Of a stretch of DNA of 64,000 nt, positions 11,351 to 63,712 are shown one piece after another. The notes under the pieces are model-generated. The model saw nothing but the letters and a program-made list of their open reading frames with translations. It was not told the origin of the DNA and did not search any database. How positions within the stretch are numbered: the first letter of the stretch is position 1; the number at the start of each line of letters is the position of its first letter. Origin of the DNA: Squalus acanthias (taxonomy: Eukaryota); contig CM059432.1 in NCBI GenBank assembly GCA_030390025.1, forward strand, positions 74,216,001 to 74,280,000, given 5' to 3'. The translations under genes were made by a program, and so were the position numbers.

Positions 11351-11379
11351 CTGACTGGAGCATTCCAAAGCAGATTGTC

Positions 11380-12203
11380 CTTGGGTACTGTTCCCCCTCC
11401 CCTTCAAATCTGCTGTCATCTCCCCCTCAAAAAACCCACTCTTGACCCCTCTGCTCTTGCAAACTACCGGCCCATCTCCAAACTACCTTTCCTCTCCAGT
11501 CCTTGAACGTGTTGTCGTCCCCCAAATCTGTGCCCATCTTTCTCGCAACTCCACGTTTGACCCCCCTCCAGTCAGGTTTCTGCCCCTGCTGCAGCACTGA
11601 AACAGCCCGCATCGAAGTCACAAATTACATCCTATGTGACTTTAATCATGGTAATCTATCCCTCCTCATGCTTCTTGACCAGTCTGCAGCCTTCAACACA
11701 GTTGACCACACCATCCTCCTCCAATGCCTCTCTTCCATTGTCGAGCTGGGTGGGACTGCCCTCTTCTGGCTCCATTCCTATCTAGCCAGAGAATCACCTG
11801 CAGTGGCTTCTCTCCCTGCTCCCGGCTTCTCTATCCTTGGCCTACTCCTATTTCTCATTTACATGCCTCTTGGCAACATCATCTGAAAACGCAACAGGTT
11901 CCACATGTACGCTGTCGACACCCAGCTCTACTTCGCAACCTCTTTCGACCCCTCCACTGTCTCTGATTTGTCACGCTGCTTGTCAGACAGCTAGTATTGG
12001 ATAAGCAGAAATTTCCTCCAATTAAGTATTGAGAAGACCAAAGCCATTGTCGTCTTCTCCCTGGTCACTGTCCGAGGCTGGCTGAACCAGACTGTTTGGA
12101 ACCTTGGCATAATATTTGGCCCTGATCTGAGCTTCCGACCCCATATCTTTTTCACCACTACGTTAAAGGCGCCATATAAATGCAAATAAAAGTTGTTGTT
12201 GTT
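11380..12203 (+). mobile_element. L2-clade LINE fragment with internal deletions
   Basis: LQSGFCPCCSTETARIEV and AAFNTVDHTILLQCL. Ends with a (TTG)n tail at about 12192-12203. Confidence 0.85.
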
Positions 12204-12394
12204 GAATAAATCTTCTAAAATCTATCCTCCAGCTGTCATACTTTTTTTTTAAAAACTGAGCAAAAACAAGTGTCCACCTGCATGTGCATCTTGGTTGCCA
12301 CTTCAGACCCAAGCCCCTCTTTTTTTTGTTTTTTTCTTCCTCTGGATCTTTATGCTTTCCTCTTCTTTCTCTCTCTAATTATGTGATCTTTCAC

Positions 12395-12805
12395 CTTTTT
12401 TAAGGAGCATCTTAAAGTAGGAAAGCGAGGCGGAGAGGTTTAGGGAGGGAATTCCAGACTTAGGGCCTTGGCAGCTGAAGGTACGGCCGCCAATGGTGGC
12501 GTGATTAAAATCGGGGATGCTCAAGAGGCTAGAACTGGAGGGGCGCAGATATCTTGGAAAGTTGTAGGATTGGAGGAGATTACAGAGATCAAGAGGGGCG
12601 AGGCCATTGAAAACGAGGATGAGAATTTTAAAATTGAGGTGTTGCGTAACCAAGGGCCAATGTAGGTCAGCTAGCACAGGGGTGATGGGTGAACGGGACT
12701 TGAGGGTTTCAGCAGCAGACGCACAGAGGCAGGGGGCGGAGTCGAGCAATGTTAGAGGTGGAAATGGGGGGTGATGGCACGGATATGTGGTCGGAAACTC
12801 ATCTC
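12395..12805 (-). mobile_element. L2-clade LINE fragment, opposite orientation
   Basis: Minus ORF SPITPVLADLHWPLV.QHLNFKILILVF; homologous to about 9580-10150. Confidence 0.85.
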
Positions 12806-14596
12806 ATGATTCAGGTGAAGTTTATATTGAGTTCTCAAAGCAAAAGGTCTATGAAATAATGAGTTTGGTTCTGTGTTCTATTTGCTTTCGAAAGCATATT
12901 AAGTTCTAAGCGTGTCTTATCCTAATTCTAGTCCATCTTTCAAAAAAAGTTGACTTTTGAAGCAAATAGCCTCTAATGAACTCATTGACGGTTAAAAAAT
13001 ATAAACTTTCTAATTGTTGATATCTGTAAGACCAAGCATAAGCGACAGAGGCAGACAGTGTCTTTCCTCATCCTAATTTGATATCCTCTTTTTAAAATTT
13101 TATTTGAAAGCAAATAATGCCTTTTTAAGATAAATAGATCGGAGAGAGGCAAGGAGAGGAAAAAGGGACATGAGAGCAAGGAAGTAGGGGGCAAGCATGA
13201 GTGATGAGGAAGAGGATGGAAAGGGAGCCACTGAGGGCCACATTTTCCCCCACTAGCCTCATCAGAAAATGCAGCCTGGACCTGTCAGGGGCTCCTCTCC
13301 CTGCAACGCCACACTACAAGGCCCACTACCTCTCATCTGACAGAAAAGATGACAGCTAGAAATTGAAGCAGACAGAAGGAATAGCAAAAAGAATATTGGT
13401 ACAGCATTGATCTGCTAATAGGATATAATTTCTGCTAAATGCACTTAGGAATGAATATGATAGACTTCCAGGTGCATAAAATCATTGCTCTGACTTTTTC
13501 TACGGTTTATCATATTTCATGAAAATTGGATGTGGTAGTCTAATTGGGCACCTAGTTTCATAATCCTCGTGATAGTGCATTGCAGCTTCTTAGTTAATAT
13601 AATGAATGATTTGAAATGATAAAATGTAGGAGTGCTTAATCACTTTTTCTTGGGGACCCGAGAAGCTGCTGATTATGTTTGTGAATATTTATAAAAACAG
13701 GCCAATAGTCCAGATATCATCATTTTGTAAATCTTACTAGATTTATTTCTAGAATTTTTAACCTTATGTATAACCCAATTAGAGCTCGCAGTAGAGTTGC
13801 CTCTTAATCTGTAAAGTTCTTTCAACCCTCGGAAATGGAATATTATGCATTAAAGCTGATGTACAAATACTGCATTCTCAATTCCAGTGCTAAAGAAATG
13901 TTTTTATTTTGAAGGAGGAATGATAATTATGGTTTGATGGCAGGAACACTTCATCTTCACTCTCATGATTTATCTCTCTTTTTTCTCCATCTTTCATCCT
14001 TTGGCTCCTTTATGCCCATTTCTGTGTCCATAACAGGCTTTTTGCACTCTACAATGTTTATAAGCTGACTTTAAATATGGTGTCTCCCATTACTAGAAAA
14101 GATATATTTAAACTGTGCTATGACTAGAATTAAATATAAATTGCAGTTATTACTATTGGGTGCTGTTTGTTAATTTTGTTCATTAAAAACTCCCTTTTTC
14201 TGGTAATGGTAGGCACTGGATTCAAGGTGAGGCTTGCTTAGAAGTTGGAGCTAGCCTGAAGAGATGGCCAGGGACAGAGAAGAAGCGTCTAGGTCAGATC
14301 AGGAGGAACTGAGATAAGCATGAGAGCCTAGAAGGATTTCCATCAGGTAGACAGAAATAACGTGAGGGATGCCAAACCACAGAGAAGTAGAAGAATTGTG
14401 TAAACCGTGTCATCAATGTGTTCACAAATGTGCACTAATGCCAGTCCTATTACATTGATTCTCATTGATCAAATAGGTGTAGTCTATATATGTTGAGTGT
14501 ATTCACTTCTCTGAAAGGAGTGTGATCTCCACATAAAAATGTAATGCTCTGTAAACATTTAATACGTACGTACTTCTCTCCATCTCCCCTTTCCCT

Positions 14597-16614: not shown

Positions 16615-16745
16615 AACAAAAAGCAAAATACTGCGGATGCTGGAAATCTGAAATAAAAACAGAAAATGCTGGAAACACTCAGCAGGTCGGGCAGCATCTG
16701 TGGAGAGAGGAAGTTAACATTTCTGGTGGATGATCTTTCATTCTT
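16615..16745 (-). mobile_element. Penelope-like pseudo-LTR fragment
   Basis: GCGGATGCTGGAAATCTGAAATAAAAACAGAAAATGCTGG...CAGCATCTGTGGAGAGAG; same sequence family as 28565-28665, which adjoins a Penelope ORF end. Confidence 0.65.
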
Positions 16746-28002: not shown

Positions 28003-28564
28003 GTAAGTATTTTTGTAGGTTAAGTTTAAAGCTGAAATGCTACATTGGTATTCTTTCCCCACATTAGTGACACTGTACCATAAAGTAGATTAATGAAAAT
28101 TATGTCCTTGTGAAGCTCATAAGGGTTCCTGCCCTGAGCATGATTTTGGGAGGTACTGAGTGGAAAAAATAAGTACCCTCAGGCTCAATTTGTGTGCCTC
28201 TCAATGTTCTCATGAAAGCCTTGGTGGCTACCTCATATTAATTGAGAAACTTACTACATGTTTTGCACCTACGTATCTCTTATAATTATCTCCAATATCA
28301 TTTTCATAAACATTTAACAAATTGCAAATGAACAGGTAGGAAACATACCAATGAGCAAGTAACAAAAATAAACAAAAACTGCCCATCAAGAAGCACCAAA
28401 GAGATAGGAAATAAACAATAAAATAGCAGCAGCAAACGGCAATAAAATTAACAAGGAGCAGAAGGGAGATTAATTAAATCACTCCCAAAAAAAAACACTT
28501 TTTGGCTGCCATCTTCTGTCAATAACCAGCAGTTTTCGTATTAAAAATAAGGTCTCTAACATAT

Positions 28565-28950
28565 GTGAAATATAAATAGAAAATGCTGGAAGTACTCAGC
28601 CGGTCAGGCAGCATCTGTGGAGAGAGAAACAGAGTTAACATTTCAGGTCTGTGACCTTCAGAACTGGAAAATGTTACAGATGTAACAGGTTTTAAGCAAG
28701 TACAGAGGCAGGGAAAGGGGTGAGGGAGGGGAGGAAAGAACAAAAGGGAAGGTCTGTGATAGGGTGGAAGGCTGGAGAGATTTAATGAACTGCAGAATCA
28801 TTACCAGCATCTGGTGTCTGGAAAAAAATGGGAGCAGTGGTTATGATCTGAAATGGTTGAACTCAATGTTGCGCCCGGAAGGCTGTAAAGTGGCTCCACT
28901 GTAGTTGACCGGAATTAAAGGTAGATTTCCAGCATCTGCATTATTTTGCC
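28565..28950 (-). mobile_element. Penelope-like element 3' end with short inverted pseudo-LTR piece
   Basis: Minus strand encodes TLQPSGRNIEFNHFRS* (Penelope ORF C-terminus) and a degenerate hammerhead-like CTGAAGGTCACAGACCTGAAATGTT. Right end GATTTCCAGCATCTGCATTATTTTGC is pLTR sequence in the opposite orientation. Confidence 0.7.
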
Positions 28951-29537
28951 TTTAATGATGTGAATTGTGTAATTTTTTAAACTTGCCTATAGAGTGTGTT
29001 TTGTGCATGTGAAACTTTTACATAAATGTTTCCATTCAGAGCTTTTTCACTGTCTTGGAAGCATGGTGTTTCATCATGTTGAGTTCCTTGGGTCCCCGAG
29101 TAAAGGGGTTTGGGCAAGTAGCAGACTCTCAAAATGTGCCAGTGTCACACTGCATGTCACACCAATGGACTACAAATGCACCAGTGCACATGTGCATGTC
29201 GCTCTGAGACGCATCCCTCCCCAGAATGCAGACTAAGGCTGCCTTTTTCTTCAGTCTAAAACAGTAATGTGCAGGTGGGTGAGGCTTACAAACCTGGAGA
29301 ATTTGAACATGGGTCTAACAGGTGGTGTTAAACATGGTGTCAAGCCCAGTTCTTGCTCCTTCCCAAATTATTTTTGATAATGGTGTTGGCTATTTGACAA
29401 CCCCTTTCCTTGTAAAGGGTGTGTTGGAAAATAGTAAGTGTTCCTTTTAACATTGAATAATTGAGGTTTTCCTTATCTTGTTTTTCTAAGCAAAATAGCT
29501 CAAATGTTTGCATTTATATGTATATAAACAAGTATAA

Positions 29538-30819
29538 TAATGAATAGTCAGCATGGATTTCAAAAGGGAAAATCTTGGCTTGACCAAACTTATTGAATTT
29601 TTTGAAGAGGTAAGAGAGAGAGTAGACAATGGTAATGCAGTAGATGTCATTTATCTAGATATTCAAAATGCCTTCGGTAAGGTACCCCATAATAGACTAA
29701 TGAATGAGGTCAGAGAATGCGGAGTCAGGGGACAAGTAGCAGAATGGATTGCTAGCTGGCTTCAAGACAGAAAGCAGAGAGTGGGAGTAAAGGGTAGCTA
29801 TTCACAGTGGCAGAAGGTGGGTAGTGGTGTTCCGCAAGGACCAGTGCTGTTCACAATTTACATTAACAATTTAGACTTTGGAATCAAAAACACAATTTCT
29901 AAATTTGCGGATACCACCAAATTGGGGGGGATAGTCAATACTGAGGAGGACTGCAACAAATTACAGGAGGACATTAATAAACTTGCAGAATGGGCAAATA
30001 ATTGGCAAATGAAGTTCAACACAGACAAATGTGAGGTATTACATTTTGGTAGGAAGAATAGGGAAGTCACTTATTACTTGGAGGGTGGGAGTCTAGGTGG
30101 GGTAGAGGAATAAAGGGATCTCGGAGTACAAATACACAAATCACTAAAAGTTGTGCCACAGGTTAGCAAGGCCATTAAAAATGCAAACCAAGCACTAGAG
30201 GGATAGAATTGAAAAGTAGGGAAGTTATGCTAAACCTGTATTGAACCTTGGTTAGACCACACTTGGGGTACTACGTGCAGTTCTGGTCACCATATTCTAA
30301 AAAGGATATAGAGACACTGGAGAGGGTGCAGAGAAGATTTCCAAGGATGATACCAGAAATACGAGGGTATACATATCAGGAAAGGATGGGACAGGTTGGG
30401 TCTCTTTTCTCTTGAAAAAAGGCTGAGGGGGTGACCTAACAGAGGTCTTTAAAATTTTGAAAGGTTTTGATAGAGTGGATACAGTTAGAATGTTTGCACT
30501 TGTGGGGAAGAGCATAACTAGAGGCCATCAATATAAGATAGTCACCAAGAAATCCAATAGGGAATTCAGAAGAAACTTCTTTACCCAAAGAGTGGTGAGA
30601 ATGTGGAACTCGCTACCACAGGGAGTGTTGAAGCAAATAGTATAGATGCATTTAAGGGGAGGCTGGACAAACATGAGGGAGAAGGGAATAGAGGGTTACG
30701 CTGATAGATTTAGATGAGGAAAGACGGGAGGAGGCTCGAGTGGAGCATAAACGCCGGCATGGACTGGTTGGGCCAAATGGCCTGTTTCTGTGGTGTATAC
30801 CCTATGTATTCCTATGTAA
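29538..30819 (+). mobile_element. CR1 LINE, 5'-truncated
   Basis: VDVIYLDIQNAFGKVPHNRL, SGVPQG, SKFADTTKLG and RNFFTQRVV. (CCTATGTA)2 tail. Confidence 0.92.
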
Positions 30820-32774: not shown

Positions 32775-34255
32775 CATAAGAACAAAAGAAATAGGAGCAG
32801 GAGTAGGCCATGTGGCCTCTCGAGCCTGCTCCGCCATTTAATAAGATCATGGCTAAACTTCTACATCAACTCCACTTTCCCGCCCCATCCCCATATCCCT
32901 CGATTCCCTTAGTGTCCAAAAATCTATCGATCTCAGTCTTGAATATACTCATTGACTGAGCATCCGCAGCCCTCTGGGGTAGAGAATTCCAAAGATTCAC
33001 AACACTGAGTGAAGAAATTTCTCCTCATCTCAGTCCTAAATGTCCAACCCATTATCCTGAGACTATGACCCCTAGTTCTAGACTCTCCAGCCAGGGGAAA
33101 CAGCCTCTCAGCATCTATCCTGTCAAGCCCTCTAAGAATGTTATATGTTGCAGTGAGATCACCTCTCATTCTTCTAAATTCCAGAGAGTATAGGCCCATT
33201 CTACTCAATCTCTCTTCCTCTCATCCAATCCAGTGGACCTTCATTGCATCCCCTCCAAGGCAAGTATATCTTTCCTTGGGTAAGGAGACCAAAACTGTGC
33301 ACAGTACTCAAGGTGTAGTCTCACCAAAGCCCTATATAATTACAGCAAGAGTTCCTTACTGTTGCACTCCAACCCCCTTGCAATAAAGATTAACATACCA
33401 TTTGCTTTCCTATTTGCTTGCTGTACCTGCATGTTAACTTTCTGTGATTCATGTACAAGGACACCCAAATCCCTCTGAATACCAACATTTACTGGTCTCT
33501 CACCATTTAAAAAATATTCTGCTTTTCCATTCTTCCTAACAAAGGGGATAATTTCACACTTCCCCACATTATACTCCATCTGCACCCTTCTTGCCCAATC
33601 ACTTAACCGGTCTATAACCTATTGCAACCTCTTTACATCCTCCTCACAGCTTACTTTCCCACCTAGCTTTGTATCATCAGCAAACTTGGATACATTACAC
33701 TCGGTCCCCTCATCTAAGTCATTGGTATAGTCTGTAAATAGCTGAGACTCAAGCACTGATCCTTGTGGCACTCCCTGTCATGCCAAATATGACCTGTTTA
33801 TTCATACTCTCTGTTGTCTGTCCATAAACCAATCCTCAATCCATGCTAATCATCCTATGAGCCGTAATCTCGTCTAACAACCTCTTGAGTGGCACCTTAT
33901 CGAATGCCTTCTAAAAATACAAATATACTACATTCACTGGTTCCTTCTTATCTACCCTACTAGTTACACCCTCAAAATACTCCAATAGATTTGTCAAAGA
34001 TGATTTCTCTTTCATAAAACCATGTTGACTCTGCCTAATCATATTGTGATTTTTTCCAAGTGCCCTGTTACCACGTCCCTAATAGTGGATTCCAGCATTT
34101 TCCCTACTAATGATGTCAGGCTAACTGGCCTGTAGTTCCCCGTTTTCTTTTTCCCTCCTTTCTTGAATAGCGGTGTTATATTTGCTACCTTCCAATCTAC
34201 AGGGACCTTTCTAGAATCTAGCCACCTCTTTTAAAACCCTAGGGTGTAAGCCATC
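32775..34255 (-). mobile_element. CR1 LINE, 5'-truncated, internally deleted
   Basis: GLYSLEFRRMRGDL and QRDLGVLVHESQKV; CR1 3' UTR with TTCTTATG tail. Same subfamily as 60051-63268. Confidence 0.92.
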
Positions 34256-36677
34256 ATCTCCTCCCTCCCTCCCTCCCTCTGCCTGCCCCTCTCCTCCCCC
34301 CCTCCTCTCCCTCCCTCCCTTTGCCTGGCTCTCTCCTCACCCCTCCTCCCTCCCTCTGCCTCCCTCCCTCCCTCCCTCCCTCCCTCTCCCTCCCTCCCTC
34401 CCTCCCTCTGCCTGCCTCCCTCCCTCCCTCCCTCCCTCCCTCTGCCTGCCTCCCTCCCTCCCTCTGCCTGCCTCCCTCCCTCCCTCTGCCTGCCTCCCTC
34501 CCTCCCTCCCTCCCTCCCTCTGCCTGCCTCTCCTCCCTCCCTCCCTCTACCTGCCTCTATTCTCTCCTCTCCCTCCCTTTGCCTGGCTCTCTCCTCACCC
34601 CTCCTCCCTCCCTCTGCCTCCCTCCCTCCCTCTGCCTCCCTCCCTCCCTCTGCCTCCCTCCCTCCCTCTGCCTCCCTCCCTCCCTCTGCCTCCCTCCCTC
34701 CCTCTGCCTCCCTCCCTCCCTCTGCCTCCCTCCCTCCCTCCGCCTCCCTCCCTCCCTCCCTCCCTCCCTCCCTCCCTCCCTCCCTCCCTCCCTCCCTCCC
34801 TCCCTCCCTCTGCCTGCCTCTCTCCCTCTGCCTCTGCCTGGCTCTCTCCTCACACCTCCTCCCTCCCTCTGCCTGGCTCTCTCCTCACACCTCCTCCCTC
34901 CCTCTGCCTGCCCCTCTCCTTCCCCCTCCCTCTGCCTGTCTCTCTTCCCTCTCCCCCTCCCTCCGCCAGCCTCTCTCCTCCCTCCCTCTGTCTGCCCCCT
35001 CCTCCCTCCCTCTGTCTGCCCCCTCCTCCCTCCCTCTGTCTGCCCCCTCCTCCCTCCCTCCCCCATCTCCCTCCCTCCCTCCCTCCCTCCTCCCCCTCCC
35101 TCCCTCCCTCCTCCCCCTCCCTCCCTCCCTCCTCCCCCTCCCTCCCTCCCTCCTCCCCCTCCCTCCCTCCCTCCTCCCCCTCCCTCCCTCCCTCCTCCCC
35201 CTCCCTCCCTCCCTCCTCCCCCCTCCCCCTCCCTCCCTCCCTCCCTCCTCCCTCTCCCTCCCTCCCTCCTCCCTCTCCCTCCCTCCCTCCTCCCCCTCCC
35301 TCCCTCCCTCCTCCCCCTCCCTCCCTCCCTCCTCCCCCTCCCTCCCTCCCTCCTCCCCCTCCCTCCCTCCCTCCTCCCCCTCCCTCCCTCCCTCCTCCCC
35401 CTCCCTCCCTCCCTCCTCCCCCTCCCTCCCTCCTCCCCCTCCCTCCCTCCTCCCCCTCCCTCCCTCCTCCCCCTCCCTCCCTCCTCCCCCTCCCTCCCTC
35501 CCTCCTCCCCCTCCCTCCCCCCTCCCCCTCCCTCCCTCCCTCCCTCCCCCCCCCTTTCCTCCCCTTCCTCCCTCTGCCTGGCTCTCTCCTCACCCCTCCA
35601 TTCCTCCCTCTGCCTGTCTCTCTTCTCACCCCTCCATTCCTCCCTCTGCCTGTCTCTCTTCTCACCCCTCCATTCCTCCCTCTGCCTGTCTCTCTTCCTT
35701 CTCCCCCTCCCTTTGCCGGCCTCTCTTCTCCCTCCCTCTGCCTGCCTCTATCCTCTCCCCCCCCCCCCCCCTTCCTCCCTCTGCCTGGCTCTCTCCTCAC
35801 CCCTCCATCCCCCCCTCTGCCTGCCCCCCCCCCTCCCTCTGCCTGCCTCTATCCTCCCCCTCCTCCCCTTCCTCCCTCTGCCTGCCTCTATCCTCCTCCT
35901 CCCCCCCCTCCTCCTCCCCTTCCTCCCTCTGCCTGCCCCCCTCTGCCTGCCCCCCTCCTCCCTCCCTCTGCCTGCCTCTATCCTCCCCTTCCTCCCTCTG
36001 CCTGCCTCTATCCTCCCCCTCCCTCCGCCTGCCCCCTCCTCCCTCCCTCTGCCTGCCTCTATCCTCCCCCTCCCTCTGCCTGCCCCCCTCCTCCCTCCCT
36101 CTGCCTGCCTCTATCCTCCCCCTCCCTCCCCCCTCCCTCCTCCCCTCCCTCCCTCTGCCTGCCCCCCTCCTCCCTCCCTCTGCCTGCCTCTATCCTCCCC
36201 CTCCCTCCCTCCTCCTCCCCTTCCTCCTCCTCCCCTTCCTCCCTCTGCCTGCCCCCCTCCTCCCTCCCTCTGCCTGCCTCTATCCTCCCCCTTCCTGCCT
36301 CTGCCTGCCCCCCCCTCCCTCTGCCTGCCCCCCCCCCCTCTGCCTGCCCCCCCCCCCCCCCTCTGCCTGCCCCCCCCCCCCCTCTGCCTGCCCCCCCCCC
36401 CCCTCTGCCTGCCCCCCCCCCTCCCTCTGCCTGCCCCCCTCCTCCCTCCATCTGCCTGCCTCTCTCCTCACCCCTCCCCCTGCATGGCTCTCTCCTCACC
36501 CCTCCTCCCTCCCTCTGCGTGGCTCTCTCCTCACCCCTCCATCCCTCCCTCTGCCTGGCTCTCGCCTCACCCCTCCCTCTGCCTAACACTCTCCTCACCC
36601 CTCCATCCCTCCCTCTGCCTGACACTCTCCCCTCCTTCCCTCTGTCTGCCTGCCTCTCTCCTTGCTCCTCCCCCCCA
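34256..36677. repeat. ~2.4-kb polypyrimidine low-complexity/minisatellite tract (CCCT, CCCTCTGCCT, CTCCCC units)
   Basis: Almost entirely C/T on the + strand with sub-arrays of ~18-33-bp units. Confidence 0.95.
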
Positions 36678-36819
36678 GTGGCAGGAGTGTGACTCGCCTA
36701 GGAAGGAGAAAATGTGGATGTGTAACACACGCAGCAGTAATGTGCCATGCACTCCCATCGTCCCCATCCTATCTTGAGTACAGATTGAACCAATAAGTCC
36801 TTGAATGCATTCTCACCTC

Positions 36820-38135: not shown

Positions 38136-39120
38136 AGCTACAGCAATCCTGTGAGTTTACTATCTGCGCTGTCTCCAGGCTGCGGTGCATGCTATCAAAT
38201 CACTTTTATTAAATGCATCTATACTGCATATTTTGTAATGATACCAGTGTTCTGGTTTTACTCTATATCCACAAGAGTGCACTTTGCCACTGTCCCTGCA
38301 TGCTTCTGTAACCATAGCAATGACTGCTGGTGGCGGGGCTCAGAGCCTGGAGTGTGCCAAGTTATAGCAATAAAAAAAGGTGTAGCGAAAAAGATATGTC
38401 ACTGTGATTATATACCTCTGAATCTTTCTGTCGAACATAATTGGTCATTTTGTGAATAAACCGATCAGAATGGACAAGTTTCTGGGGTCTATCCGATTCC
38501 TAGTTACATCGGCCCGGATTTTGAGGGGTAATGACGGTGAACTATCAGCGTTCAACGTCATTACCCCTCTGAAACTGATCGTAACTTCAGGATGTAACAG
38601 ATGTGCAGACAAACACAGAAATCCTGAAGTTGCTGTCAGTCATTTCCTGCTCCCCCACGGGCTGCGCTGTGCAACTCCCAATAGCCAACAATCCGTGAAA
38701 TCAGTAGAACTGACGAAAACTTTCGCTTTTCCGATCTAATTACGCTGTTAAACACCCCACTAAAAATTAAGCCTTGTTGGAAGGTGTAACTGGGGTTTTG
38801 ATGGCATATTGATTGCTGAACAACTGTTCTGGCCCTGAAAAGTTTTATGTTTGTGGATTGTCAAATTTCATCATTGTGATAGAAAATTACTAGATTTTTA
38901 AAATAATAAAACATTGTTAAAGTTTGTTTGACATTTCAGAGGGAGGAGCTCTGGGGAAGGAAGGTCGGGAGGGAAGGTCAGGAGTTCGGGGTGGGGCGGG
39001 GGGGGAGGCATAAGAGCACGGAGAGAACAATGGGGATGGGGGAAGAACGTGATCCAGGTCGAAAGGTGGGGGATGAGAGTGAGAACTTGATCCAGATGGG
39101 AAGACTGATCACCATCTCCC

Positions 39121-39841
39121 CCCTCTGTTAGACGTGGATCACCTTCTCCCCCCCCCCCCCCTCTGTTAGACGTGGATCACCTTCTCCCCCCCCCCCCCCC
39201 CCCCCCTCTGTTAGACGTGGATCACCTCCCCCCCCCACCCCCCTGTTAGACGTGGATCACCTCTCCCCCCCCCCCCCCCCCCTGTTAGACGTGGATCACC
39301 TTCTCTCCCCCCCCCCCCCGTTAGACGTGGATTACCCCCCCCCCCCCCCCTCTGTTAGATGTGGATCACCTTCTCCCCCCCCCCCCCCCCCCCCCCCCCT
39401 CTGTTAGACGTGGATCACCCCCCCCCCCTCTGTTAGACGTGGATCACCCCCCCCCTCTGTTAGACGTGGATCACCCCCCCCCTCTGTTAGACGTGGATCA
39501 CCCCCCCCCCCCCCCCTCTGTTAGACGTGGATCACCCCCCCCCCCCTCTGTTAGACGTGGATCACCTTCTCCCCCCTCTGTTAGACGTTGATCACCTCCC
39601 CCCCCCCCCTCTGTTAGATGTGGATCACCTTCCCCCCCCCCCCCTCTGTTAGACGTGGATCACTTTCTCCCCCCTCTGTTAGATGTGGATCACCTTCTCC
39701 CCCCTCTGTTAGACGTGGATCACCTTCTCCCCCCCCCCTCTGTTAGACGTGGATCACCTTCTCCCCCCCCCCCCCCCCCTCTGTTAGACGTGGATCACCT
39801 TCTCCCCCCCCCCCCCCCCCCCTCTGTTAGACGTGGATCAC
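39121..39841. repeat. Minisatellite, 21 copies of a TCTGTTAGACGTGGATCACC core separated by variable (TTCT)C-runs (basic unit ~30 bp)
   Basis: Units counted directly from the sequence. Confidence 0.95.
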
Positions 39842-43411: not shown

Positions 43412-45260
43412 CAGGAAACTCTTTGGTATCCGGCACCGACGGGACCGGGGTGGTGCCGGTTGAATAAAAATTCCGGATGACGGAGAGGGTTATCTACCGA
43501 GGCTATTTTTAACAAACAAAAATAAAAAAATCAAGAAATGTGAAGTGTACAGTAATTGGGTACTCACCTACAGAATGTTGTGTTAAATGGATGATGGAAG
43601 ATGCTTGATTAAGTACAGTACTGCCAGTTGAGGGTAATCCATAACTCTTTAATTACTTAACAGTAAAACAAAACTTATAAACGACTGTATTGTAGTTGAC
43701 TGTACACTTATTCCAAGTCAGCTGGTTCATCAGGAATATCCATGCCAGCTGGGTCATCAGCATCATGCACTTCCACAGATTCTTCAGGCACTTCCGCTGC
43801 TTCGACTCTTTTGGAAGCTTTCTTAAACATGTCCCGGATGTCTGCTTGCTTAGTGGACTCTTGCCTTTTCTGTAGAAAGGTGGAATGCAGAATATGGAGG
43901 TGCATAACTTCTTGGGCAGAGTAGCAAGGCTGCCTTTCAGCAAATTGGAGGATTGAAGCAAATCCTTCTGCAGCTTTAGCCCAAGAAATCTTCTTCTCTT
44001 CAGAAATCTCATCCTCTTCACTTTCCATCTCACTTTCCTTTTCTTTCTTTGGATTCAAAACATTCTCAATTATTTCATCATCACTTAACATATGCACAAC
44101 ACCAACTTCTCTATCTGCATCAACCCACTGCTCGATATCACTTTCACTGAGGTGACGTAGAGGGTTTGCTGGGCCTACATTTTTCACCATGCCAGCCATT
44201 TCCATTATTGTACTCTTCTTGGGACGAACATTGAACCCATGAAATTCCTCCTCGATCTTTATTACACGATCTTTATTTTTCTTGTAACCTGAAGCATTAG
44301 CCTCACTAGCCCCAGCAAGCGTTGATTCTGGCAAAAACCTCCAAAATAAGCCAGTTTCATCGGCATTATATATCTGTGCTGGTGACAAATCATGTTGCTG
44401 CACAATCCGATTCAAATAATCGCAGTATTCTTCTGCGGCGTCGTGATCAGCTGATTTCTTCTCCTCGGAAATATCGAGTCGTCGTATCCCGTGCCATAAC
44501 TTGAAGCACGTTAGCCATCCCTCGGAGAAAGCACACTTGTCAGTGAGCTCCATCCTTACGTAGAAATCCTTCGCTTCCTCGATTAGCATGGGTCCGGAAA
44601 GTGGAACACCCTCTGAACGCTTAAGAGAAAACCACTCATAAAGCACGGTATCCAGCTCTTCAAGCTTAGGCTTACGAAGCATACACCATTTCTCTACATT
44701 CTTAGATGTCTCCGAGCTTGAATAAAACTTGAGCAGCTTATCCTTCTGCGATTTGATGTCGTAGATTGTTGACGAACCGATTTTGAATTCATTCATAATG
44801 TTGATACGCTTCTCTCCCCTTTCTAGTCATTGGCATATCTCGATTTTCTGTTTTAAAGTTAACACCATTCTCTTCCTTTTGCTTGGACCAACTTTTGGGA
44901 GTTCCATAATGCAAGATGGGGGAGATAATTCACGATAAAGATGGAGAGAGACACAGAAAAATGGTGGCTCGGAAGAGACTACCAGCAGCGCGGGAGACAC
45001 ACAGTAAAATGGCGGATCAGAAGAGACTACCGGCAGCGCGGGAGAATCAGACTCCTGTTATTGCGGTGTTCGGACTTCTGACAGCGCCAGGAAGCCGAGT
45101 AGTGGCACTTTGGAGAACTACCCCCACTGACTAACTCGGCGTTCGCGGGAGACTTGGACTCAGCAACATTGCCGGTTATGGAGTTGTTTTCAGAGTATGA
45201 TTTTTGCCGGTTAATAGAGAATTCCGGATATTTAGGTGCCGTTTAAACAAGAGTTTCCTG
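43412..45260 (-). mobile_element. Tigger/pogo-family DNA transposon, internally deleted
   Basis: TA TSDs at 43410-11 and 45261-62. ~26-bp TIRs CAGGAAACTCTT......CGGCACC. Contains a transposase-derived ORF. Confidence 0.93.
43708..44907 (-). pseudogene. Tigger/Jerky-like transposase: CENP-B-type HTH domains, first catalytic Asp ([12 protein letters not shown]), rest of DDE domain missing
   Basis: ATG at 44907 (MELPKVGPSKRKRMVLTLKQKIEICQ), in-frame TGA at 44829-44827, then a 362-aa open frame with FSEGWL..FK..HGIR and NADETG. Confidence 0.88.
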
Positions 45261-53799: not shown

Positions 53800-54960
53800 C
53801 ACCTTCCAATGTACATTTTAGGGGGGAAACAGCAATAAAAAAAAATTAAACCAGTGGTAAGATTTTAAGAGTGGAGAAACAAAGAAATATAGGGGTGTAG
53901 ATAATTAAGAAGTGCAGTTAAAAAAGGCCTTTTAAAAAGGAAGCAAAGTGGATTCTGAGTTATATTTTTAGGGAAATTGAGTATAAAACCAGGAAGTGAT
54001 GTTGAATCTGTACAAGGCATTGGTTAGGCCACCATTGGAATATTGCATGCAGTTCTGGGTACCCCATTAATGGGAGGGATATTAAACCCATGGGAAGGAT
54101 ATAGCAAAGATTCACTGGAATACTAGGAAATAAGAGGTTATGGAAAAAGACATTCAAAATTGGGACTTTCTTGGGACAGAAAAATTATGGGTGGGGATCT
54201 AATGAGGTTTTCAAAATTAGAAATTTTGAGGGTAAATGGTGAAAAATTGTTGCCACGTATTGGCAAATTGGTAGCAAGGGAGCATAAACTGAAGATTCTC
54301 ACTAGAAGAATGAAGAGGGTTATTAAAACATGGAATGCTTTATCACAAGTGGCTATTGAGATAAAGAATATTACTTTATTTTAAAAAGGAATTGGATAAG
54401 CCTTTCAAAAAGAACATTATAAAAGGATACAGAAAAATAGGATTAGTGTAGATAGCTCCAGTTGAATACCTAGCACAGACTTGATGGGTTATATACTGTA
54501 CTGTACTTCTATGGTTTTATGACACTGATGTTATATGCACAGTTCAAACTATATGGAGGCAAATAATGATTCGGGGTATCTGGAACTTAAATTATGAGGA
54601 AAGAGTGAAGAAGTTAGGTCAATTTTCTCTGGAAAATTGAACACTTTGAGGTGACCTAATTGAAGTTTTTCAAGGCGACGAAAGAAATTGACATAATCAC
54701 AGCAAGTTATTCACTTTTGTGAAGTGTTCAAATGCTGTAGGACAGAAGTTAAAATGTGAAAAATAAGAAGGAAGGGAAGTAGAGCAGAAATATTTCACCC
54801 GAAGGGTAATACAGTTGTAGAATAAGTTGCCAGGAAAGCATGCTGAAATAGGCAGCATTAGTGGGTTCAAGAGGCAATTGGATACATTTTTAGAGAATGA
54901 ATTGAGGAATATAGGTAGTATTGACTGACAAAAAAGGGACAAGCTTGTTGGACCTAAATG
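53800..54960 (+). mobile_element. Two adjacent degenerate CR1 3' fragments
   Basis: LYKALVRPPLEYCMQFW remnant near 54010-54060; second GGTGACCTAATTGAAG segment near 54650. Confidence 0.65.
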
Positions 54961-55035
54961 CCTTGCCCACTTAAAAAAAAAATTGTGTTTTTTTAAGTAA
55001 ATATGGCTTTGCTAATAGTGATTTGTATCCAAAAG

Positions 55036-55157
55036 GAGCGGCCGCTTGCAGAATTCTGGACAAAATTGGAACATTCAAGGGATTATAAAAATGGCAACCA
55101 ACTCAGGGAATACCAACTGGAGGGTGTAAACTGGCTACTCTTCAATTGGTACAACAG
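55036..55157 (+). CDS. CHD7: CHD7 coding exon (approx. exon 11), pre-ATPase/Q motif: [40 protein letters not shown]
   Basis: aaaAG acceptor, AG|GTGGGT donor, 122 nt (phase 0 to 2). [15 protein letters not shown]2 Q motif. Confidence 0.95.
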
Positions 55158-55434
55158 GTGGGTTATTGTGCTTTCAAAATAGTTTGCAGTAATGGACAAA
55201 ATAATTTCATCGAAAACCGTTTTTATACTAGTACTGTTTAAGTTCAGATTCCACAAGACTGGCATCTGAGCCGGCTCCCTTATGCAGCAGCAGGTTCATA
55301 GTCCCAGGAAAAACTAGTTTTGCAAGACTGCCATCTGGATTAGGGAGTCAGATTTAGTAGCTTCAATGCTAAAAGTTGACTCACAGATGTCGGCTCTAGA
55401 ATCTGAACTAAAGCAGTACCAGGATAGAAGCTTA

Positions 55435-55665
55435 ACAACTTGCACTTACATAGGACTTCCAACGTAGAAAAATGACCAAGGGCATTTCATAGGAGCGTAA
55501 TCGGACAATAATAACATTGACACCAAGCCAAAGAAGGAGATAATTGGGACTGGTGATTAAAAGCTTGGTCAATGAGTTGGCTTTGAAGAGGGTCTTAAAG
55601 GGGAAGAGAGGGGTAGATAGGCAGAGAGGTTTAGGGAGGGAATTCCAGAGCTTGGGGCCTAAACT
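55435..55665 (-). mobile_element. L2 3' end
   Basis: GAGGTTTAGGGAGGGAATTCCAGAG and CAACTTGCA tail, reverse complement of the L2 3' UTR. Confidence 0.7.
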
Positions 55666-56312
55666 GTAATAAAATAATTAAAATAATAAATATTGCTTTT
55701 TTTTTAAAAAATGCTGCTGTAAAAGTAATGCAGTGCAGATGGATGTTACTCCTTGCCATATTCACTGAGTGCAATAATTTGAGAGATTTGCCCAGGATGG
55801 GGAGAGAAAAGGGGAAGTGGTTTAATCACCAAAAATTGTAATATTTCAAAATTGTTCATGTAATTGCTTTTTTGGAGGATAGGGTGGTACCTGAATTACT
55901 TAGCCTGTAGAAGCTTTTAAAGTCCTACAAAAGTCAATCTTGGACAGTTTTTTTTTAAAGAATTCAAATAGTAAAACATACTAGTCTTAGTAAAAAAAAT
56001 CCAAATTTCTTGAAGTAGTATAACCTGGACTACATAGTGAAAAGGAATAGAGATATGTCAACAGAATGCATAGTCTGTAAGAAGGGCAATGTGTGGGATT
56101 CTAGTTTCCATTGCCTATATACCACAGATTGGAGATCAGCTTTTCTCGCGCTTTCCTGCTTCCCTCCATTCCAAAACTTTTGGAGTTACCTAGATCTCCT
56201 TTAGAGAGTATTTCAAAATTGAAATGATGTGGAGATGCTGGTATTGGACTAGGGTGGACAAATGTGAGAAGTTGCACAACACCAGGTTATAGTCCAACAG
56301 CTTTATTTGAAA

Positions 56313-56349
56313 TCACAAGCTTTCGGAGCGCTGCTCCTTCGTCAGGTGA
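56313..56349 (-). ncRNA. Minimal hammerhead ribozyme motif (Penelope type), core intact
   Basis: Minus strand UCAC-CUGACGA-A-GGAGC-AGC-GCUCC-GAA-AGCU-U-GUGA: CUGANGA/GAAA core, 5-bp stem II, palindromic AGCU stem III, UCAC/GUGA stem I. Confidence 0.75.
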
Positions 56350-56897
56350 AGTGAAGAGATGCATATAGTCACAGCATATATAGTCAGAGAACACTGCCAG
56401 ATGATTACAGTTAATCTTGCCAACTGCCCTTTATCACACCTCGGCAGAGAGATAATCACGGCAATCAAAGGTGTGGATGGTGTCCAAACAGGTCAGTCAG
56501 GAAAACATTACATCAAAGACAATGTGGCAGATGCTGGGGTCTGTATGGAAAACAAAAAACTTTTTTTGCTGGAAATCACAGCAGGTCCGGCCGCATCTGT
56601 GTAGCGAGAACAAGCCAACGACGACTCGAGTCTGGATGACTCTACGTCAGGTGGGGTTACATGTAGCGTGACTTCCAGCAAAAAAAGTTTTTTGTTTTCC
56701 ATACAGACCCCAGCATCTGCCACTTTGTCTTTGATGTAATGTTTTCCTGACTGACCCGTTTGGACACCATCCACACCTTTGATTGCCGTGATTATCTCTC
56801 TGCCGAGGTGTGATAAAGGGCAGTTGGAAAGATTAACTGTAATCATCTGGCAGTGTTCTCTGACTATATATGCTGTGACTATATGCATCTCTTCACT

Positions 56898-56934
56898 TCA
56901 CCTGACAAAGGAGCAGCGCTCTGAAAGCTTGTGA
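56898..56934 (+). ncRNA. Mutated copy of the hammerhead motif
   Basis: TCAC-CTGACAA-A-GGAGCAGCGCTCT-GAAAGCTT-GTGA: G8 to A in the core and C to T in stem II. Confidence 0.65.
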
Positions 56935-57243
56935 TTTCAAATAAAGCTGTTTGACTATAACCTGGTGTTGTGCAACTTCTCACATTTGTCAAAATTGAAA
57001 GATTAGTTTAGATACAGTAAGTACAATGCTTTTGATGGTGTACCGTTTGGTTTCTGTGTAGAAAATTAAATCACTGTTGCTGAGATTACATTTATTTGCA
57101 TTGGTATGTATTTCTATAATGTCTGTTGCACTGTAGTGGCATAGCTAAAACTATGAAAACAATTAAAGCTACTACCCTGGGGGGAAAATGTAAAATTACA
57201 GCTTTTATTATAAAGACTTGTAATCTTTTCTCTCTTTTTTCAG

Positions 57244-57487
57244 CCAAAACTGCATTTTGGCAGATGAAATGGGGTTAGGGAAGACTATCCAGTCTATTAC
57301 ATTTTTATATGAAATGTACTTGAAGGGAATTCATGGCCCCTTCCTGATTATTGCACCCCTTTCCACAATCACTAATTGGGAAAGGGAGTTCCACACTTGG
57401 ACAGCGATGAATGTGACTGTGTACCATGGCAGCCAGGCTAGTCGTCAAATGATTCAGGCGTATGAAATGTACTTCCGGGATGCTGAG
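57244..57487 (+). CDS. CHD7: CHD7 coding exon (approx. exon 12), SNF2 ATPase motifs I/Ia: [49 protein letters not shown]...YHGSQASR...YFRDAE
   Basis: Long pyrimidine tract + cAG, GAG|GTAAGA donor, 244 nt (phase 2 to 0). Walker [19 protein letters not shown] and YHGSQASR are CHD7-type. Confidence 0.97.
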
Positions 57488-59619
57488 GTAAGAATGGCAG
57501 GTTACGGGAAATTTTGGTTTATGTACATTGAAATCTGTAGTAAACACAGCAATACGGAAAAGGAAATAATATAAAGCAATTTTCCAGACTGTTTAATTTA
57601 CATTTCACATGGAAGGTTTGTTTTGTAAAATTCTTGAATAGTGAAGTATTTGCAATGGGAAAACTTTATTTGAACATAAATTCATTTTACTTTTTTTTAA
57701 TACATTTTATTGGTCCTAATTTCTGGTTAATCAACTATTGATCTTTACTTGGTAAATTTGTTGTAATTGTATCACAACTGTTGGTCCCTTTAGTGTGGAC
57801 AGGCTAATTGATATTGGTGACCAAAAAGGTCCATGTTACTGGCAAAGCTGACTGACATAAGTAGTACTCTGAATTTCTTTTTCTCCCAACTTAGTACCTC
57901 ATAATTCTATAAGGTCCTCTCTGATTCATCTGCTTTCAGAACTGAAGATTCTGTAACTCTCTAGCCTTTCTTCATTCAGCTCTCTGAACTAATGATCAAC
58001 CTCCTGGCTACTTCTCTGCACTGCCTCCAGGGCATGAATATTTCCCTGTTCTCATTGACCAAACTGATTTTAAGGAAGTTTATCTGATTGAGAGGTTAAG
58101 ATGACTACCTTGAAACCTCTGTTCTATCAATTTTTTTTTAACAGCATACAAATACTGTGAAGTTTGAGGGAACAACTTAATTCTGTATTGAGTTTGTTTT
58201 GCTGTTAGTAGGTGTCTAATTGTTTCTGCTAAAATAAACTCAAAACATCCCTAGACATACTATTTCCAAAAGGGAAAACTGCTTCGTGCAAGGGAGTAAT
58301 GAAATCTTGAAATTTTGTTATAATCCACTCAAACTTCAATCAGGGAGTTGGAAATGGCACATCTTTTTGATTTCATTCATTCCCTCCTATCTCACTGCCG
58401 GCCTTCTATTATCCTATATATTTTATATGTATGCATTTGCCATTGTAGGCTTGAAACTGCCAATGTCAGTTTGCAACCACTAAAAAAAAAAGTACCTTCA
58501 TCTACTGTTTTACCATTTTACTTGCATTTTGCTCTCGACCTTGATCTGTTGATGCTTCAAAAGAAATTTTCCAGAAGAGTCATTTCAGTGGGTTTAAACT
58601 GAACGTCATAAGTTTGTCCAAAACTTATTTGTTCTATCCTGTTTTTCACTTTCACTATTGGTACAGTACTTTTTTTGTACGGTGCATTTTTTTGAAACCT
58701 CAAAAGCGGGCATTTCCTACAAAAAAGCAAGTTCTGCTATAATCTTGCAGATCCTCAAGTTCAGAATGACAATTGCATTTCTGTCTTTTTTTCACATCGA
58801 CTACATTCTGAGTTAGTCCCAGAACTTTCCATGTTTTTGCAGGTGAATTTGTGCATACATTGAATTTCTAGTTTTAAAATTAAACATGTCTCTCTACTAG
58901 ATGGATTGCAAAATATTGGATTATATTCTTTTGCCTTTCTCAAGAAAACATTTTGCACAGCTGATTCCATAGAGTATGGTTTGGGCAATGAAGTTAGTTA
59001 ATACATGTATCATTTTATAATGAGCGTTCCATATGGAGTTTTTTGTACTTCGCAACATGAGGAACGTTGGTGCTGGGGATGAAACGTTTTCTGTTTCAGG
59101 TACCCAGTGTCTTATAAAGTACTCCCAGGTCAGGGTTAGCGCAGTTAGATGGAGCATCAACCTCAAATTCTACTGCACTAACTTTACAAATTCCTACATT
59201 AGCAGCTTCTAGCCACTTGATTCCAGTTGGCAAGTTAGTGACAATTTGTGCAGTGGGTTTATGGCTACTAGAAGCTGGCTTGAGACTGTCCAGACTCCAT
59301 TCACATGGGAGCCTTTTCATAATGAGATTTTCATCCCAGGTCCCTGAACTATTGAATTTAAACCCAGTGATGAAAGGCCAGTGTTGAATTCAGTGCACCA
59401 CCCAGCTTCCTCCCACCAAAATATATTTTTAAATATAAAATAACTGCATATAATCCATGCTTTTTATTGTAATGAAAACTGTAAATGTGACCCCACAAAT
59501 TAAGCAAAATTTATATTTTTAACATTTGATTTCCTGAAAGTGAATTAAGAACTAAGAAGGTGTCTACCACCTTTTAATATGAGTGGATCTTCCAGGGCAT
59601 TCAGTGCATGAGAGTTGAG

Positions 59620-60050: not shown

Positions 60051-63000
60051 GTGGCTGGAGAGATGGTGTAGGAGGGAGGGATTTAAATTCCTGAGGCATT
60101 GGGACCGATTCTGGGGAAGGTGGGACCTGTACAAGCTGGACGGGTTACACCTCGGCAGAACCGGGACCAATATCCTCACAGGGGGGGTTGCTAGTGCTGT
60201 TGGGAAGAATTTAACTTAGTCAGGGGGCTGGGAACCTAAGTGTGGGCCCAGGACAGAGAGAAACAAAGCTGGAAGTGCAAGTTAGAAAAGTAGTCAGCAA
60301 AACTAGTAGGGAGCAGAAACAAAGGCCAACAGTAAAGAGGGTCAAAGTGCAGAAAAATATTAAACAGGCAAAGTTGAAGGCACTTTATCTAAATGCACGT
60401 AGCATTCGCAACAAGGTGGATGAATTAATGGCACTAATAGAAGTAAATGGGTATGATGTAATTGCCATAACAGACATGGTTGCAAGGTAAACAAAGCTGG
60501 GAACTGAATGTTCCAGGGTACTCAACATTTAGGAAGGACCGACAAAAAGGAAAAGGAGGTGGCGTAGCGCTGTTAATAAGGGATGAGATCGGTATGGTAG
60601 AGATAAAAGATCTTGGCTTGGCAGATCGTGATGTAGAACTGGAATCAGTTTGGGTGGAGCTAAGAAACAGCAAAGGGCAGAAAACATTGGTGGGAGTTGT
60701 GTATAGGCCACCAAACAGTAGTGGTAATGTAGGGCACAGTATCAATCAAGAGATTAGAAGTGTATGTAACAAGGGCAATGCGGTAATCATGGGGGACTTT
60801 AATCTACATATTGACTGGGCAAATCAAATTACCACTAATGGTGTGGAGGACGAATTTTTGGAATGCATGTGAGATGGTTTCCAGGATCAGTATGTGGAGG
60901 AACCAACCAGGGAACAGGCTATTCTGGATCTGGTACTGTGTAATAAGAAAGGGCTAATCAAGAATCTTGTGATAAAGGGGCCTTTAGGGACAAGTGACCA
61001 TAATATGATTGAATTTTACATTAAGTTTGAGAGTGATGTAGTCCAATCTGAAACTAAGATCTTCAATCTAAACAGAGGAAACTACAAGGGTATGAGGGAC
61101 AGGTTGGCCATGGTAGATTGGGAGACTACACTAAAAGGTATGAAGGTGGACATGCAATGGCTAACATTCAAGGAAATAATGCATAATTTGCAACAAACAT
61201 ATATTCCTCTAGGGCATAAAAACCCAAAAGGAAAAGTGATCCAACCATGGCTAACAAAAGAAATTAAAGCTAGTATTAAGTCAAAGGAGGAAGCTTATAA
61301 AGTTGCCAGAAAAAGCCTGAAGATTGGGATCTTTTTAAAAAATCAGCAAAGGGGGACCAAGAAATTGATAAAGAAAGTGAAAATGGAATATGAGCACAAA
61401 CTAGCAAAAAATATCAAAACTGATTGTAAAAGCTTCTAAAGGTATGTGAAAAGGAAAAGACTGGCGAAGGTAAATGTAGGTCCTTTACAGTCAGAGATGG
61501 GAGAATTTATAATGGGGAATGAGGAAATGGCAGAGAAATTAAATAAATACTTTGTTTCTGTCTTCACGGAGGAAGACACAAAAAACCTCCCAGAAATATG
61601 AGAAAACCAAGGATGTGGTGAGAATGAGGAACTTAAAGAAATTATTATTAGTAAAAAAACAATACTAGCAAAATTAATGGGACTAAAAGTCGATAAATCT
61701 CAAGGACTGGATGACCTACATCCTAGGCTTTTGAAAGAGGTGGCCATTGGGATAGTGGACGCATTGGTTGTCATCTTCCAAGATTCTATAGATTCTGGAA
61801 CGATTCCTGCAGATTGAAGGATAGCAAATGTAACCCTGCTATTTAAGAAAGGAGGGAGAGAGAAAACAGGGAACTACAGACCTGTTAGCCTCACATCAGT
61901 AGTTGGGAAAATGCTGGAATCTATTAAAAAGGATGCAATAACTAGGCACTTAGAAACTAATAGTGAGATTGGGCAGAGTCAACATGGATATATGAAAGGG
62001 AAGTCCTGTTTGACAAACCTATTGGAGTTCTTTGAGGATGTAACTAGTGGAGTAGACAATGGGGAACTGATAGATGTGGTGTATTTGGATTTTCAGAAGG
62101 CCTTCGATAAGGTTCCACACAAGAGGTTGGTGAACAAAATTAGGGCACATGGAATTGGGGGTAATATACTAGCATGGATTGAGAATTGCTTAACAGACAG
62201 AAAACAAAGAGTAGGGATAAACTGGTCTTTTTCAGGATGGCAGGCTGTGACTAGTGGGGTACCGAAAGGATCGGTGCTTGGGCCCCAGCTATTCACAATC
62301 CATATCAATGATTTGGATGAGGGGACTAAATGTAACATTTCCAAATTTGCTGCTGATACAAAGCTAGGTGGCAGTGTCAGTTGCGAAGAGGATGTGAAGA
62401 GGCTTCAAGGGGATCTCGACAGGCTCAGTGAGTGGGCGAGAACATGGCAGATGGATTATAATGTGGATAAATGTGAAGTTATCCACTTTGGTAGAAAAAA
62501 CAGAAAGGCAGAGTATTTCCTAAATGGTGAAAGATTGGGCAATGCAGATGCTCAAAGGGACCTGGGTGTCCTTGTACATGAGTCACTGAAAGTGAATGTG
62601 CAGGTGCAGCAAGCCATTAGGAAGGCAAATGGCATGCTGGCCTTCATTACAAGAGGATTTGAGTACAGGTGTAAAGAAGTCTTACTCCAATTATATAGGG
62701 CCTTGGTGAAACCACACCTGGAGTACTGTGTACAATTTTGGTCTCCTTACCTAAGGAAGGATATACTTGCCATAGAGGGAGTGCAACGAAGGTTCACGAG
62801 ATTGATTCCTGGGATGGCGGGACTGTCGTATGAGAAGAGATTGAGTAAACTAGGTCTGTATTCTCTTGAATTCAGAAGAATGAGAGGGGATCTCATTGAA
62901 GCATACAAAATTATTACAGGGCTTGATAGGGTTGATGCTGGGAGAATGTTTCCCTTGGCTGGGGAGTCTAGAACCAGGGGCCACAGCCTCAGGATAAAGG

Positions 63001-63268
63001 GTAGGCCATTCATGACTGAGATGAGAAGAAATTTCTTCACACAGAGGGTGGTGAATCTTTGGAATTCTCTACCCCAGAGGGCTGTGGAGGCTCAGTCATT
63101 GGGTATATTCAAAACAGAAGTCGATAGATTTCTGACTAGTAAGGGCATCAAGGGATATGGCGATAAGGCCGGTGAATGGAGTTGAGGCAGAAGATCAGCC
63201 ATGATCTCATTGAATGGCGGAGCAGGCTCAAAGGGCCAAATGGTCTACTCCTGTTCCTATTTCTTATG
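60051..63268 (+). mobile_element. CR1 LINE: 3' end of ORF1 (SGNH esterase-like) and near-complete ORF2 (APE + RT) with several stops and frameshifts
   Basis: WGRWDLYKLDGLHLG (DxxH), LYLNARSIRNK, GVVYRPP, IMGDFN, LDLV, SDHN and a 424-aa RT frame (61911-63185). TTCTTATG tail. TTCTC duplicated at 60046-50 and 63269-73. Confidence 0.95.
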
Positions 63269-63712
63269 TTCTCTCCCCCAAAAAGCAATCGATGCTCAGG
63301 CAATTGGAGCTTTCAAGACTGAGCTCGATAGATTTTTGTTCGGTAAGGGTATCGAGGGATATGGAGTTACAAATCAGCCATGTTCTAATTGAATGGCCTG
63401 CACCTTTCCTAATGTTCTTATGTTAGCGGGCAAGGGATAATTGGAACAGGGTACGCAGATGTAATGCAGCCCTCATTTTAATCTCATACGTTATGTCCAT
63501 GTTTTATACTTAATATTTTTATTTTATATTATCATTTATACTTAAATAGCAAGACATCTGGCAATTTCCAAAGTAAAGTTGGTTGGTTAAAATCACTGCA
63601 GTACAGGCTGAGAAGCTGGGAGAGTCAAAACTGAAGTGCTATAGCATAACCACTGGTAGGGAGTTTAATTACAGCACGACCAGTTTACATAGGCAGCTTC
63701 CATTATAAATGT

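Follow-up and report, generated by a model that had tools for sequence, protein, structure and literature searches.

An intron of a gene of the CHD6-9 group holds a 780-base palindrome that is, in our judgement, probably the dead remnant of a 5'-truncated insertion by a high-copy Penelope-like retroelement, with a mirror half that would stem from a second priming within the same insertion. In the 64,000-nt stretch of DNA that we analysed (the window), the palindrome comprises two arms of 323 nt each (56257-56579 and 56668-56990), 98% complementary with 7 mismatches in 323 positions (2.2%), and an 88-nt spacer; the runner-up inverted pair within 5.5 kb measures only 33 nt. A 32-nt extension (56225-56256) is present on the left side only, and the direct repeat TCAAAATTGAAA brackets the insert, starting at 56213 and 56989. 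A preliminary description of this DNA had given the same arms and 88-bp spacer, the 7 mismatches, the one-sided 32-bp extension and the 12-bp flanking repeat, and inverted-repeat analysis and arm comparison bore all of these out. Because the first 2 nt of TCAAAATTGAAA also form part of the arm end, we put the duplication itself at 10-12 nt; the probability that its 10-nt core would occur by chance in a 60-nt zone beside the left end is about 5e-4. The insert and its intron are laid out as follows:

55158..57243, plus strand: host intron of 2086 nt (GT..AG) in a CHD6-9-group gene, placed by exon mapping
56213..56224, plus strand: left target-site duplication (10-12 nt, AT-rich, containing ATT), from the direct repeat and the point (56224) at which contigs of organisms B and C stop aligning
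56225..56256, minus strand: tail, a 32-nt 3' extension of the sense copy ending at the outer family terminus, from loose contig ends in run X5
56257..56579, minus strand: left arm, part of a 443-nt sense copy (56225-56667), the element's sense strand being the minus strand
56657..56672, no strand assigned: inner junction, from sequence reading
56668..56990, plus strand: right arm, inverted, shorter and lacking the tail, from inverted-repeat comparison
56989..57000, plus strand: right target-site duplication, from the direct repeat

The inner junction contains an 8-nt palindrome (56657-56664) and a 4-nt microhomology (56668-56671); microhomology at 4 of 5 nt within 56657..56672 would possibly account for the seventh mismatch between the arms. 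A search of nearby DNA (54500-59000) for the source of a templated junction insert returned just two 7-mers. The target site (56211-56224) is itself a short imperfect palindrome with 6-nt arms and a 2-nt centre. Of the seven arm mismatches, three affect the 12 CpG letters, leaving four for the remaining 311 (P=0.0013), and 3 of 6 CpGs have decayed between the arms overall; this CpG bias fits decay in a methylated genome rather than a chimeric read.

To follow the insertion beyond the window, we surveyed 24 sequencing runs, five of which, all from organism A, contain 73-75% of the words. Contigs of four of the 24 runs (X5, X6, X9 and X14) were aligned to 55700-56667, which spans the left flank, left arm and spacer; X5 represents sample S2 of organism A (55% of the run covered), X6 organism B and X9 organism C. 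A single-depth X5 contig crosses the left junction (55700-56273) with four other letters and two gap letters, and since it differs in this way yet has the junction, a different haplotype carries the insert. Single-depth contigs of 2016 nt from X6 and 3352 nt from X9 align to the flank, stop at 56224 and continue for a further 1469 and 2745 letters, respectively, so the site is apparently empty in organisms B and C. The flank diverges at 25 of 516 positions from organism B and at 20 of 519 from organism C, more than the arms do from each other (7/323), which fits an insertion after the splits from both. These two organisms also have 12 extra letters at 55946, pointing to a small flank deletion in organism A. 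The claim that this is a real, fairly recent, non-coding insertion of Penelope type thus gains support from the apparent empty site in two relatives, from the left junction in a second sample and from an anatomy that agrees with published Penelope-like insertions.

The 443-nt unit is multi-copy in organisms A, B and C. Depth was high in every element bin of X5, X6 and X9, and 10308, 33450 and 8246 of their contigs aligned, against a single-copy depth of 12-17 in the flank; these figures are not a copy number. Loose contig ends with unrelated flanks in X5 (agreement 0.41) gather at 56224 (at least 31 contigs) and at 56255 (at least 15), bracketing the tail. Among the X5 clusters listed, the one at 56265 (26 contigs) exceeds that at the inner terminus, 56255 (15), and the largest among those listed for X6 lies at 56275 (72); the clusters at 56265 and 56275 may reflect subfamily divergence. 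Strand-switch joints in X5 fall at 56308/56513, 56319/56356 and 56424/56463. Copies thus differ in their inversion points, and the earlier picture of a palindromic element moving as a unit is not supported. No run in the survey is catalogued as RNA; X14, which we guess to be an RNA run, covers the element and leaves the flank uncovered except for one T-rich bin; it is uninformative on expression.

The insertion ends 243 nt before the acceptor of the intron, where it would place a duplex of about 320 bp in the host pre-mRNA; the predicted fold of that pre-mRNA contains 317 arm-to-arm pairs. Host exons begin at 23031, 32252, 41587, 52520, 55036 and 57244 (23031-57487 in the window), and by sequence the gene belongs to the CHD6-9 group. 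Five of its exons (229 aa) are 71-79% identical to 12 well-covered CHD6, CHD7, CHD8-like and CHD9 rows, the best values being 79% for CHD7 and 76% for both CHD9 and CHD8-like; two further CHD rows, seemingly poorly covered, stand at 63% and 70%. For the upstream exon at 23031, matches were limited to two fish proteins, one bearing the label chd7. A 15-row tree (two rows poorly covered, one CHD8-like) sets the host protein outside the CHD7 group at 98/96, in an unresolved position beside the CHD8-like row. The gene had been called CHD7, a name we do not retain given this placement and the nearly equal closeness of the five exons to all paralogues; roughly equidistant from CHD6, 7, 8-like and 9, the gene could represent either an orthologue that has diverged or a paralogue of its own.

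We then turned to the ribozyme motifs and their arrangement on the element. Of the 10 raw matches that an exact CUGANGA..GAAA scan found in the window, a single one lies in the element, on the minus strand with C3 at 56345. A structural descriptor, written after the motif had been seen and allowing up to three core changes with a 5-bp stem II, stem I paired at 4 of 5 positions and a palindromic 15.2/16.2 segment, matched twice on both strands of the 64 kb, both times in the element (56345 and 56650). A check against hammerhead models had been proposed; no Rfam hammerhead family matched in 55500-57700 at E up to 5 or in the element region, 56290-56680, at E up to 10. With these motifs as landmarks, the parts of the unit and two older relics of the family in the window are:

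56313..56349, minus strand: hammerhead A, a candidate minimal type I hammerhead with intact core, from descriptor and folding
56350..56519, minus strand: non-coding middle segment, from frame reading and its multi-copy state in three organisms
56520..56655, minus strand: module B, a diverged second hammerhead-plus-tail module in direct tandem with module A, from alignment and shuffles
56898..56934, plus strand: copy of hammerhead A whose core is broken by a G8 to A change at 56907 and by G10.1-U11.1 at 56922
16615..16745, minus strand: older module-B relic, long form with tail, decayed and with its hammerhead partly deleted, from alignment
28563..28953, minus strand: older module-B relic, a tail-less long arm plus an inverted lone tail, from alignment

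Hammerhead A has a 4-bp stem I, a 5-bp stem II, the AGCU palindrome and a U at position 17, a residue that usually marks a slow hammerhead. Its cut site is predicted at 56317/56316, and its predicted fold contains stems I and II without stem III; in homodimer folding, an extended stem II duplex (-30.5 kcal/mol) is preferred over a double hammerhead (-20.7 kcal/mol). The preliminary description had placed such a motif in each arm, with a palindromic AGCU. The AGCU is present after GAA in both arms, and the left-arm motif is intact (C3 at 56345), whereas the right-arm motif has lost G8, reading CUGACAA, and carries a G-U pair (56922) in place of G10.1-C11.1. A change at G8 (G8C was the one tested) abolishes cleavage in an anole element (PMC11167929). 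The right-arm copy is the one that reads in sense in the host pre-mRNA, and we would not expect the ribozyme to cleave that transcript, because the sense copy lacks G8 and would lie within the duplex of about 320 bp. The idea that selection acted against a sense-oriented ribozyme in this transcript was set aside as unsupported, both right-arm lesions being CpG transitions at a locus where 3 of 6 CpGs have decayed. An in-cis dimer of the two arm motifs is ruled out by their opposite strands.

The third motif, hammerhead B (56615-56655; C3 at 56650, minus strand), lies in the spacer; it has a 5-bp stem II, pairs at 4 of 5 stem I positions and carries three core substitutions, leaving one intact core (hammerhead A in the left arm) among three motifs. 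When the 121-nt spacer region was shuffled 3000 times, no motif like it arose. A perfect 10-nt palindrome (56623-56632) overlaps its stem II and GAAA box, and a local template switch has possibly overwritten the core there.

On the minus strand, the 443-nt copy runs from module B (hammerhead plus about 100 nt) through the 170-nt middle to module A (hammerhead plus 92 nt). The two modules align end to end with a score of 63 (35 +/- 8 in shuffles, none of 1000 reaching that score) and share a terminal motif, and their cuts are predicted to fall 303 nt apart. Two of the three sense frames of the middle segment contain stops, and the third is open. The link from module B to the middle recurs in 9 contigs of X5, 18 of X9 and 5 of X14 (agreement 0.92-0.99); 56470-56610 is spanned by a single contig of X14, and joints in X6 cross the same place. 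Contigs that align to module B run uniformly through a linker of about 22 nt, absent from the copy at 56225-56667, into the start of the middle segment. This linker matches 12 of 13 letters directly upstream of hammerhead B, a likeness suggesting that the unit joins two related subfamilies in a partial tandem. The sense strand encodes S-R-Y-M-stop immediately ahead of stem I of hammerhead B, four codons and a stop that resemble the end of a Penelope ORF; if they are such an end, the template would reach 56672 and the seventh arm mismatch would be the junction itself. On the minus strand, a stretch of pyrimidines closed by AG lies shortly before the end of each module (56520-56547 and 56225-56250) and resembles a splice acceptor. 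Penelope end repeats can hold introns.

The relics at 16.6 and 28.6 kb both belong to the module-B family (0 of 500 shuffles each). At 28.6 kb, a 31-nt tail stands alone and inverted at the far end (28923-28953); it is identical to the tail of the 16.6-kb relic at 28 of 31 positions, with a 27-nt core at E 5e-6 in the window. The long arm of the same relic, in its present form, lacks this inverted tail and so was not the template for it. Candidate target-site duplications of the two relics were only 8-mers and unconvincing. On the sense strand of the 28.6-kb relic, an open stretch of 36 aa also runs to a stop (28844-28951) and looks like a Penelope ORF end; it matched only two repetitive proteins, gave Atlas matches below 0.9 and had no Pfam match, and a 47-aa frame of the 16.6-kb relic matched no protein. 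Elsewhere in the window, we noted a 372-aa open frame (43708-44826, minus strand), which resembles a Tigger/pogo-type transposase; LINE-like endonuclease and reverse-transcriptase frames at 60471-63272, 29544-30113 and 32779-34220, with a 1.5-kb pair 78% alike and presumably CR1-like; L2-like fragments at 4756-12810; and a long C/T-rich low-complexity tract at 34215-36777 and a degenerate tandem array at 39107-39841.

By its anatomy, on which the class assignment rests, the family is likely a new member of the Penelope-like class and ordinary in kind. Like endonuclease-bearing (EN+) Penelope elements, it shows a 443-nt 5'-truncated sense copy with an adjacent 323-nt inverted truncated copy, an optional tail in the 30-40-nt range (32 nt here, with long and short forms in the two relics), a short target-site duplication of 10-12 nt at an orthologous site inferred to be empty, a putative minimal hammerhead in the terminal repeat (the descriptor match at 56345, without an Rfam match) and dispersal in many copies, judged by contig depth in X5, X6 and X9. 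Insertion units of this kind, as set out in the accessible text of PMC3846280 and PMC8557442, share with it the head-to-head inverted truncated copy, a 31-32-nt tail at one end, the short duplication, the palindrome or microhomology at the junction and the partial tandem of end modules; the palindrome copy differs from them in lacking an ORF and in having direct end modules that are diverged and not near-identical. Searches with short window peptides and DNA motifs gave no link between modules A or B and an ORF with reverse transcriptase plus GIY-YIG. The DNA motif of the module-A core had no match among viral sequences or metagenome contigs, and that of module B had none in either set and one in a bacterial genome, which we take as chance. 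A trans-mobilised copy and a truncated autonomous copy would look alike.

Two known ribozyme-bearing systems offer further comparison. In the available part of PMC11167929, the Poseidon element PAc of Anolis resembles the family in its tail between two termini, its AT-rich target with ATT, a minimal hammerhead about 60-92 nt upstream of the ends and an inner terminus in a predicted stem-loop; the ORF of PAc starts at stem II, whereas here all three sense frames past the hammerhead A core close within about 60 nt. Minimal Penelope-like hammerheads, going by the accessible sections of PMC4209133, are likewise type I without helix III, with an extra nucleotide after A9, G10.1-C11.1 and a palindromic 15-16 segment, and dual minimal hammerheads 100-700 bp apart on opposite strands are already known from Schistosoma (PMC4209133). 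Hammerhead A differs from these in its U at 17 and in a predicted homodimer that prefers the extended stem II duplex.

How might one insertion yield two unequal, opposed copies? In the reading that we favour, a Penelope protein would have nicked both strands of an AT-rich target about 10-12 nt apart, a spacing taken from the duplication. cDNA primed at one nick would have begun at the outer start site of the element RNA and grown to about 443 nt; that primed at the other would have begun at the inner start site, some 31 nt inward, and grown to about 320 nt. The two cDNA ends would then have been joined via short microhomology. The template would have had a direct tandem of two diverged hammerhead-plus-tail modules, spaced about 300 nt apart, presumably as a family trait, and the insert would then have decayed, mostly at CpG. 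We infer all of these steps for this element. The palindrome arms do start at different termini, one outer and one inner, with the family inner end (56255) lying 2-4 nt off the arm end of this copy. Against this reading, an arm overlap of about 320 nt calls for two RNAs or for strand displacement, and in this it departs from classic L1 twin priming. Published accounts provide several of the parts: an inverted truncated adjacent copy and a 30-40-bp tail are usual for these elements (PMC8557442), a 31-bp tail on one inverted pLTR occurs together with 8-10-bp target-site duplications (PMC3846280), and for the anole element in vitro, both strands are cleaved and extended with a preference for ATT, the tail being the stretch between two reverse-transcriptase start sites (PMC11167929). 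Further background is found in the accessible portions of PMC6155905, PMC6765202, PMC8969392 and PMC3649969.

It is unlikely that the same Penelope stub instead acquired its mirror half by fold-back, with the first cDNA priming itself at the inner junction and an endonuclease resolving the hairpin at the tail boundary. A single RNA would be enough for this, and the 8-nt palindrome and 4-nt microhomology of the inner junction would suit it; in the text available, PMC3846280 favours self-priming given palindromes at inverted junctions, and PMC8557442 attributes the tail to endonuclease resolution. However, priming in vitro takes place on both strands at both start sites (PMC11167929), and the 28.6-kb relic, whose inverted piece is missing from its long arm, would need an extra trimming step. 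We favour two primings because simple fold-back cannot copy sequence that has no template in that long arm, although the inverted tail there could alternatively derive from trimming or from a separate stub insertion.

Readings that give the two hammerheads an active role fare worse. It is quite improbable that this is a high-copy non-autonomous Penelope-derived family, spread through at least three related species, in which a heterologous two-ribozyme retrozyme releases an RNA of about 325 nt and copies record two-ended priming at both reverse-transcriptase start sites. Very doubtful, too, is a two-module unit that constitutes a non-autonomous retrozyme-like family, in which the two different hammerheads excise an RNA of about 300-325 nt for mobilisation in trans. 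In its favour, modules A and B are homologous and share one orientation, 303 nt separate their predicted cuts, their link through the middle recurs in X5, X9 and X14 and in the X6 joints, and the chondrichthyan retrozyme consensus averages 363 bp in the accessible part of bioRxiv 10.64898/2026.07.22.740005. Non-LTR retrozymes (PMC7229834 and the same preprint, as far as their available text goes) are similarly non-coding and related to Penelope-like elements, with two same-strand motifs about 300 nt apart. Yet the ends of the palindrome copy are tail sites and not ribozyme cuts, lying 60 and 92 nt downstream of cut A and about 47 nt upstream of cut B, and the 443-nt unit is not a tandem of like units with complete hammerheads: its modules are diverged, hammerhead B has three core substitutions in this copy, and the other copy of A is inverted and broken. 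The stem III palindromes of A and B differ, co-folding of the two gives no double hammerhead, and the four codons and stop before B would be expected of a truncated autonomous copy. The retrozyme-like interpretation in the preliminary description is therefore not supported, as the locus lacks a head-to-tail array, only one of three cores is intact and the arm motifs lie on opposite strands. Finally, an assembly artefact, that is, a fold-back chimera of a read, is exceedingly improbable, for although neither the inner nor the right junction of the palindrome was among the contig rows listed from X5, X6, X9 and X14 (the alignment ended at 56667), the exact target-site duplication sits at the empty-site boundary, the arm differences are CpG-biased, the arm ends match family termini, the left junction is present in sample S2 and the flanking exons are consecutive.

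In the literature consulted, we found no account of this family or of Penelope twin priming; one may exist in Repbase or Dfam, in subscription journals or in the tables that supplement the preprint (one chondrichthyan genome). The single insertion matters little in itself, its pattern having already been published for Penelope-like elements, and that the family seems to be a tandem of two diverged end modules is of modest value. The insert also marks its lineage by presence or absence. Of similarly modest value, the palindrome and the 28.6-kb relic together suggest that a lone inverted tail is a countable genomic signature that could separate two-ended priming from fold-back, a step of the Penelope cycle that the accessible parts of the cited papers leave open.
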